In this document: in pieces, positions 8,234 through 8,689 of the stretch
How positions within the stretch are numbered: position 1 is the first letter of the stretch
Layout: each line of letters starts with the position of its first letter
Sequence record: NC_054922.1
Reading direction: 5' to 3' (one strand)
Source of the DNA: Escherichia phage vB_EcoM_KAW1E185
DNA: 64,000 bases
Program-made: the position numbers and the translations under genes
The notes under the pieces: model-generated
Told to the model about the DNA's origin: nothing
What the model saw: the letters and a program-made list of their open reading frames with translations, nothing else
Database searches by the model: none

Positions 8234-8689
8234 TTATTTTAAATCATCTGCCCAATCGAGTTTAAGAGGCTCTTTGTATTCACGATCTAATACGACCGGA
8301 ATTTGTACATCACCGCTAAATGATAAGGGCCCAACATTATAAGACAATGTTATATGCGGTGTGTAATCATCAAAATCATGTGTAGCACCTAGTGCCCGCG
8401 CATACATGTGTCGACAACGCAGATATTCAGAATCTAGCACAAGTACAAGAGTCGATCCATCTTGTGTTTTCCATACTTCTAAATGTCCAGAAGAAGCTAC
8501 TTCAAAACTTCCACTCGATGGAACATATGGAACATTTACTCTCGAATAACATATGGTCGAATGAATTTTTTCTCTAGGAACTGGATTAGGAACACGTAAA
8601 GAGCGCTGAAGTTCTTCCAGCGCATCAAGTGTTAATTCTGAAAACTTAGCTGCTACATAAAGACCCGTTGAAAAGTCTTTAAATTCCAT
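8234..8689 (-). CDS. 57B: 2H-phosphoesterase Acb1 (T4 gene 57B), anti-CBASS cyclic-nucleotide phosphodiesterase
   Basis: 151 aa; two H-x-T/S motifs (HSTICY, HITLSY); sits between ipI and 57A as in T4. Confidence 0.85.

Follow-up and report, generated by a model that had tools for sequence, protein, structure and literature searches.

The acb1 (57B) gene of Escherichia phage vB_EcoM_KAW1E185 and its place on the margin of a variable accessory region

On the minus strand of Escherichia phage vB_EcoM_KAW1E185 (NC_054922.1), not far from an array of tRNA genes, lies a small gene that raises two questions: whether its product cleaves the cyclic nucleotide signals of CBASS or belongs with the RNA-processing enzymes of the same superfamily, and whether the gene is part of a cluster of counter-defence functions. 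We addressed both within a 64,000-nt stretch of the phage genome (the window; all coordinates refer to it). Our answer to the first is that 8234-8689 is, almost certainly, acb1 (T4 gene 57B) of a T4-like Tequatrovirus, encoding a cyclic-nucleotide-cleaving 2H phosphoesterase as the last cistron of a 1-57A-57B block. The answer to the second is more mixed, as the surroundings of the gene differ on its two sides.

The gene, its product and its family

8234..8689, minus strand: acb1 (gene 57B) coding sequence, 151 aa, stop included (open reading frame list; T4 identity; Pfam; PDB)

A single intact open reading frame fills this interval, with its ATG at 8687-8689 and its stop at 8234-8236 on the minus strand of the open reading frame list; the longest frame on the opposite strand there, at 61 aa, is nothing comparable. 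The product is the same as T4 gp57B/Acb1 (NP_049750.1) at 151 of 151 residues once the extra Met1 of the T4 protein is set aside, which bears out the original prediction that this gene is the 57B-encoded Acb1 with both of its catalytic H-x-T motifs. At the DNA level 3 of 456 nt differ from T4 gene 57B (99.3% identity), all of them synonymous, and the gene is 100% identical in phages teqdroes, AdolfPortmann, 303Ecol101PP and vB_Eco_TB37, the annotation of the 303Ecol101PP copy being ‘cyclic phosphodiesterase’. The phage is a Tequatrovirus whose best matches over 25 kb (RB18, TadeuszReichstein and R5505 among them) reach about 97-98% identity. The identity of this Acb1 is already known: it is the founding, well-characterised member of its family, in a close relative of T4.

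Family and fold searches agree with this assignment. The Pfam Acb1 profile (PF23474) scores 202.7 bits (cut-off 27; E=2.6e-60), with residues 8-149 covering profile positions 1-144 of 144, and the sequence of the crystallised Acb1 of phage FBB1 (PDB 7T26/7T27) is matched at E=4e-62. From an alignment of 28 sequences, AlphaFold predicts a compact 2H phosphoesterase fold (mean pLDDT 90.5, pTM 0.84), and the model superimposes on 7T26 in Foldseek with TM scores of 0.88/0.96, an rmsd of 0.8 Å and E=4e-20.

Public naming of the gene points elsewhere. RefSeq (T4, NC_000866.4 73952-74410) and PHROG phrog_755 both label 57B an ‘RNA ligase’, most GenBank records call it hypothetical, and only some public records use ‘cyclic phosphodiesterase’ or Acb1. 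Taken at face value, the label would make the product a LigT-type 2’-5’ RNA ligase, or an RNA 2’,3’-cyclic phosphodiesterase acting on RNA ends, with a role in RNA repair or tRNA metabolism beside the tRNA array, which lies about 2.2 kb from acb1. There is some superfamily resemblance in this direction, in that Pfam 2_5_RNA_ligase2 gives a weak match (E=0.11) and LigT structures appear among the remote fold matches (TM 0.45-0.57). However, the LigT-family profile (PF13563) reaches 13 bits, below its cut-off of 27, and over residues 80-122 only, compared with 203 bits for the Acb1 profile; the fold lies 0.8 Å from Acb1 and 6-9 Å from LigT; and the identical T4 protein was isolated by its activity as a cyclic-nucleotide nuclease, its loss abolishing cGAMP cleavage (PMC9117128). 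With PF13563 below its curated threshold and the similarity confined to the superfamily level, we rejected the RNA-ligase reading, which we regard as very improbable. The label records superfamily membership rather than a tested activity, and for acb1 it is misleading in both RefSeq and PHROGs.

Catalytic residues and proposed action

8546..8563, minus strand: first 2H motif HSTICY, residues 43-48 (H43 and T45, corresponding to T4 H44 and T46; sequence and 28-homologue alignment)
8339..8356, minus strand: second 2H motif HITLSY, residues 112-117 (H112 and T114, corresponding to T4 H113 and T115; sequence and 28-homologue alignment)
8237..8260, minus strand: C-terminal lid, residues 144-151 (T4 145-152), including W146 (T4 W147); identical to T4

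The two 2H-phosphoesterase motifs that had been claimed for this gene, HSTICY and HITLSY, are both there: a regular-expression scan of the translation, checked by hand against the raw sequence, found exactly two H-x-[ST] occurrences, H43-S-T45 and H112-I-T114. The pair by itself is not significant, as at least two H-x-[ST] occur in 16% of shuffles of Acb1 (2% when a following hydrophobic residue is also demanded). Since the motif pair lies within chance, the case rests on homology over the whole length of the protein.

That homology places the motifs firmly. When the protein is aligned with T4 Acb1, as the original prediction had proposed, both catalytic histidines are kept. Among 28 homologues, down to 28% identity, both histidines, T114 and the P-H-x-T-L context are invariant, while position 45 is T or S (the window protein entered this alignment without Met1, so that its positions there run one lower). 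The catalytic tetrad H43/T45/H112/T114 aligns with those of FBB1 and T4, the base-stacking aromatics Y11, W73, F106 and W146 are kept in the alignment as counterparts of T4 Y12, W74, F107 and W147, and E140, corresponding to the adenine N6 reader E141 of T4, is present at the aligned column. From the alignment mapping, the residue numbers used in the text of PMC9117128 are T4 numbers, and every catalytic or binding residue listed there maps onto the window protein. The same paper describes the C-terminal lid, which a later study found to be required for Acb1 activity (bioRxiv 10.1101/2025.08.21.671373). In our model pLDDT is lower at the lid (8237-8260), as might be expected of a flexible element.

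For chemistry and phenotype we draw on published work on the identical T4 protein. Activity-guided fractionation singled out T4 57B as the enzyme that degrades 3’3’-cGAMP, and it was Hobbs et al. who gave it the name Acb1, in keeping with the earlier statement that T4 57B is the founding member (Hobbs et al., 2022; PMC9117128). T4 Acb1 cuts 3’3’-cGAMP as well as cUA and cAAA and leaves cGG and cA4 uncut, the H44A/H113A double mutant is inactive, cGAMP cleavage is abolished in infected lysates without 57B, and in T4 the activity shows about 15 min into infection (PMC9117128). A T4 Δacb1 phage grows normally without CBASS and suffers a more than 300-fold defect on CBASS hosts (PMC9117128). The gene is also dispensable on K-12, and challenging a transposon library with a CBASS host led to depletion of acb1.

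From the work on the T4 protein the following scheme can be carried over to the window protein. Acb1 would be a small, metal-independent 2H phosphoesterase that holds its ligand in a U-shaped pocket, with Y11, W73, F106 and W146 stacking the bases, E140 reading the adenine N6 and the C-terminal lid closing over the bound ligand. H43, T45, H112 and T114 would then cut 3’ of adenosine by way of a 2’,3’-cyclic phosphate intermediate, leading to linear products. With the signal removed, CBASS effectors would stay inactive, and because they are not activated the phage would escape abortive infection. By analogy with T4, the phage is predicted to resist CBASS systems whose signal is 3’3’-cGAMP, cUA or cAAA.

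The same breadth has a cost. The range of T4 Acb1, which includes cA3 and 2’3’-c-di-AMP, triggers Panoptes guard systems, and phages escape these by inactivating acb1. On hosts with Panoptes, which responds when its decoy cyclic nucleotides disappear, the breadth of Acb1 is a liability, and this phage is likewise predicted, by analogy, to be sensitive to guard systems of that type. In a separate observation, Escherichia phage BYEP02 (OR757454.1, 89372-89901) matches acb1 in two pieces spread over 530 nt rather than 453, a layout that suggests an interrupted gene; an interrupted acb1 in that phage would be of interest given the reported Panoptes escape by acb1 inactivation. No anti-CBASS nuclease is better characterised than Acb1, the founding one, so the gene studied here brings no new biology; its value lies in annotation and prediction.

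Expression and genomic surroundings

Upstream of acb1 the order of genes is that of T4:

~9680..9705, minus strand: sequence resembling a MotA-box middle promoter, TGCTTCA and TATAAT 12 nt apart, upstream of gene 1 (by pattern only)
8931..9656, minus strand: gene 1, dNMP kinase, first of the 1-57A-57B block (241/241 residues as in T4 gp1)
9287..9294, minus strand: TATAAATA, T4 late-promoter-like, inside gene 1 and upstream of 57A-57B (pattern match only)
8929-8933, minus strand: gene 1/57A TAATG junction (stop/start overlap)
8689..8931, minus strand: gene 57A, tail-fiber chaperone (79/80 residues as in T4 gp57A; phrog_1002)
8687..8691, minus strand: TAATG junction at which the 57A stop overlaps the acb1 start by one base (sequence; TGATG after an extra in-frame ATG in T4, ATAATG here)

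We infer from this arrangement that acb1 is translated by coupling to 57A through the TAATG overlap and is expressed at middle to late times. T4 57B has been reported to be expressed at middle/late times (bioRxiv 10.64898/2026.03.30.715471), and the TATAAATA site at 9287-9294 fits both that timing and the onset of activity at about 15 min (PMC9117128). A scan for σ70-type promoters was at background, returning 14 sites where 11.4±2.8 were expected, and promoter sites are therefore given as pattern matches only.

The junction with 57A is the one place where the gene departs from T4 in more than synonymous changes, and it could be argued that acb1 is intact but silent or weakly expressed here, giving little protection. 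T4 reads GAA-TGA-TGG, which yields ATGATG and an annotated protein of 152 aa, whereas the window reads GAA-TAA-TGG and retains the second ATG only; a one-base change has thus removed the upstream ATG, and the extra Met of T4 is absent because the 57A stop is TAA and not TGA. In addition, no strong Shine-Dalgarno sequence is visible ahead of the acb1 ATG. On the other hand, 151 aa with one Met is the commonest form among the listed Acb1 homologues, and the aligned N-termini agree, so the N-terminus in the window is the usual one and the lost ATG is very unlikely to matter. The TAATG overlap is moreover a standard coupling arrangement that also joins gene 1 to 57A, identical acb1 DNA is found in several independently isolated phages, and the differences within the gene are all synonymous, as purifying selection would leave, although three sites are few. 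We therefore give silencing at the junction scant credence.

Downstream of acb1 the picture changes to one of internal-protein genes, trna.2-trna.4 and tRNAs:

8192-8220, minus strand: ipI early-promoter-like site (promoter scan)
7874..8161, minus strand: ipI (95/95 residues as in T4 IPI)
7825-7853, minus strand: early-promoter-like site of the phrog_8111 gene, a near-duplicate of the ipI promoter segment
7555-7806, minus strand: extra internal head protein gene, phrog_8111, between trna.4 and ipI (leader MKTYQEFIAEA)
6092-6607, minus strand: 171-aa open reading frame, phrog_2290, between tRNA-Gln and trna.2 (T4 has about 100 nt there)
5111-5761, minus strand: SegB-like GIY-YIG homing endonuclease gene, between tRNA-Ser 5015-5104 and tRNA-Gly 5766-5839
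4413-6005, minus strand: tRNA array of ten genes (Arg, His, Asn, Tyr, Met(CAT), Thr, Ser, Gly, Leu, Gln)

The original prediction had grouped acb1 with ipI and the leader-tagged proteins in a counter-defence cluster next to the tRNA array. As a description of position this stands: ipI and a second leader-tagged gene adjoin acb1, the tRNA array is nearby, and the processed and packaged form of the ipI product, IPI*, inhibits GmrSD restriction (PMC4437046). As a statement about linkage it does not, since the conserved linkage of acb1 is with 1-57A. The 1-57A-57B order is shared by T4, RB49, Aeromonas phage 25 and Vibrio phage D486; a place just after 57A is typical of acb1 in T4-like phages, though it does not define the family. 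The last three phages named, whose Acb1 proteins are 47%, 46% and 40% identical to that of the window, respectively, keep 3-1-57A-57B, and RB49 and Aeromonas phage 25 also have gene 2 upstream of these. After 57B the same three carry different, unrelated small open reading frames (the RB49 set includes dmd), and none of them has an annotated ipI there. Each of the ip genes is preceded by an early-promoter-like site of its own, while acb1 instead sits in the TAATG-coupled 1-57A-57B block. From the conserved 1-57A linkage, the differing downstream genes and the separate ip promoter-like sites, we conclude that acb1 lies on the margin of a variable accessory region and not in a co-regulated counter-defence operon. 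A search for ipII, ipIII and Acb2 (vs.4) found none in the window, which begins near e.2. A scan of 8162-8233 found no intrinsic terminator after acb1.

The layout lends itself to a further, tentative reading, for which we would claim only a modest chance of being right: acb1, with which the conserved 1-57A-57B block ends in phages of several genera, could be the constant boundary of an anti-defence island that is itself hypervariable, the small genes downstream serving as swappable counter-defence cargo that is exchanged through repeated early-promoter cassettes. The cargo here would comprise ipI, the second leader-tagged internal protein, trna.2-trna.4 and the 171-aa open reading frame, and in RB49 the variable stretch would include dmd.

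Several details of the downstream genes are recorded here in their own right. The phrog_8111 gene at 7555-7806 is absent from T4 and occurs in 245 phage records, with nucleotide identities of 84-100%; its capsid-targeting leader begins at the seventh codon. The promoter segment AATTTCACAAAGTTGTTTACA ... TACTAT is nearly duplicated ahead of ipI and the phrog_8111 gene, and judging by this repetition it looks like a repeated cassette that could mediate gene shuffling. In the gap between acb1 and ipI (8162-8233, minus strand), the -10 element (TACTAT) of the ipI early-promoter-like site lies inside an inverted repeat, GATGAG(16 nt)CTCATC, and the promoter copy upstream of the phrog_8111 gene has no such repeat. 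Beyond the phrog_8111 gene follow trna.4, trna.3, trna.2, the 171-aa open reading frame and then the tRNA array. The trna.2 gene (6604-6897, minus strand) encodes 97 aa against 95 aa in T4, with a C-terminus of ...ECIEYTYINMVSK where T4 has ...ECIVNTYHHKW, and this change sits at the junction with the extra 171-aa open reading frame.

The tRNA array itself differs from the set of eight in T4 (Arg, Ile, Thr, Ser, Pro, Gly, Leu, Gln), and its CAT-anticodon member may be of the Ile(CAU) type. No tRNA-Pro was found in window positions 1-12000, and the SegB-like gene occupies the spot that tRNA-Pro holds in T4 and 303Ecol101PP. The SegB-like gene looks mosaic, because 275 nt of it match T4 segB at 99% identity and only the first 117 residues of the protein can be aligned with T4 SegB, at 83%. 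The same arrangement, with the SegB-like gene inside the tRNA array, recurs in 53 phage records, KIT03, RB18 and CM8 among them.

Comparison with known enzymes

The closest known system is T4 itself, whose gp57B shares all 151 residues, the position between 57A and ipI in the 1-57A-57B-ipI order, the catalytic tetrad, the binding residues and the lid. T4 differs in the additional N-terminal Met and the three synonymous substitutions, and the window phage is another Tequatrovirus, in which the tRNA set is not that of T4 and further accessory genes lie close by.

Acb1 of Erwinia phage FBB1 is 66-68% identical with an rmsd of 0.8-1.1 Å, and has the HxT/HxT tetrad and the C-terminal lid in common with the window protein; it differs in a one-residue insertion after about residue 79, and it has F in place of W at T4 position 74 and Y in place of F at T4 position 107. 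The 2H PDE-9 of Burkholderia phage BCSR5 (PDB 9Q2G, 9Q2Y) falls in the same structural group of viral 2H phosphodiesterases and degrades 3’3’-cGAMP, but it is only 18-19% identical and its lid is N-terminal, whereas that of Acb1 is C-terminal. It also mostly spares 2’3’-c-di-AMP and so does not trigger Panoptes, as T4 Acb1 does. Finally, the LigT/2’-5’ RNA ligase-type 2H enzymes (E. coli LigT, PDB 5LDI) have the 2H fold and two H-x-T/S motifs in common with Acb1, but at 12-15% identity and TM scores of 0.45-0.57 they are far more remote, and their substrates are RNA ends, not cyclic oligonucleotides.
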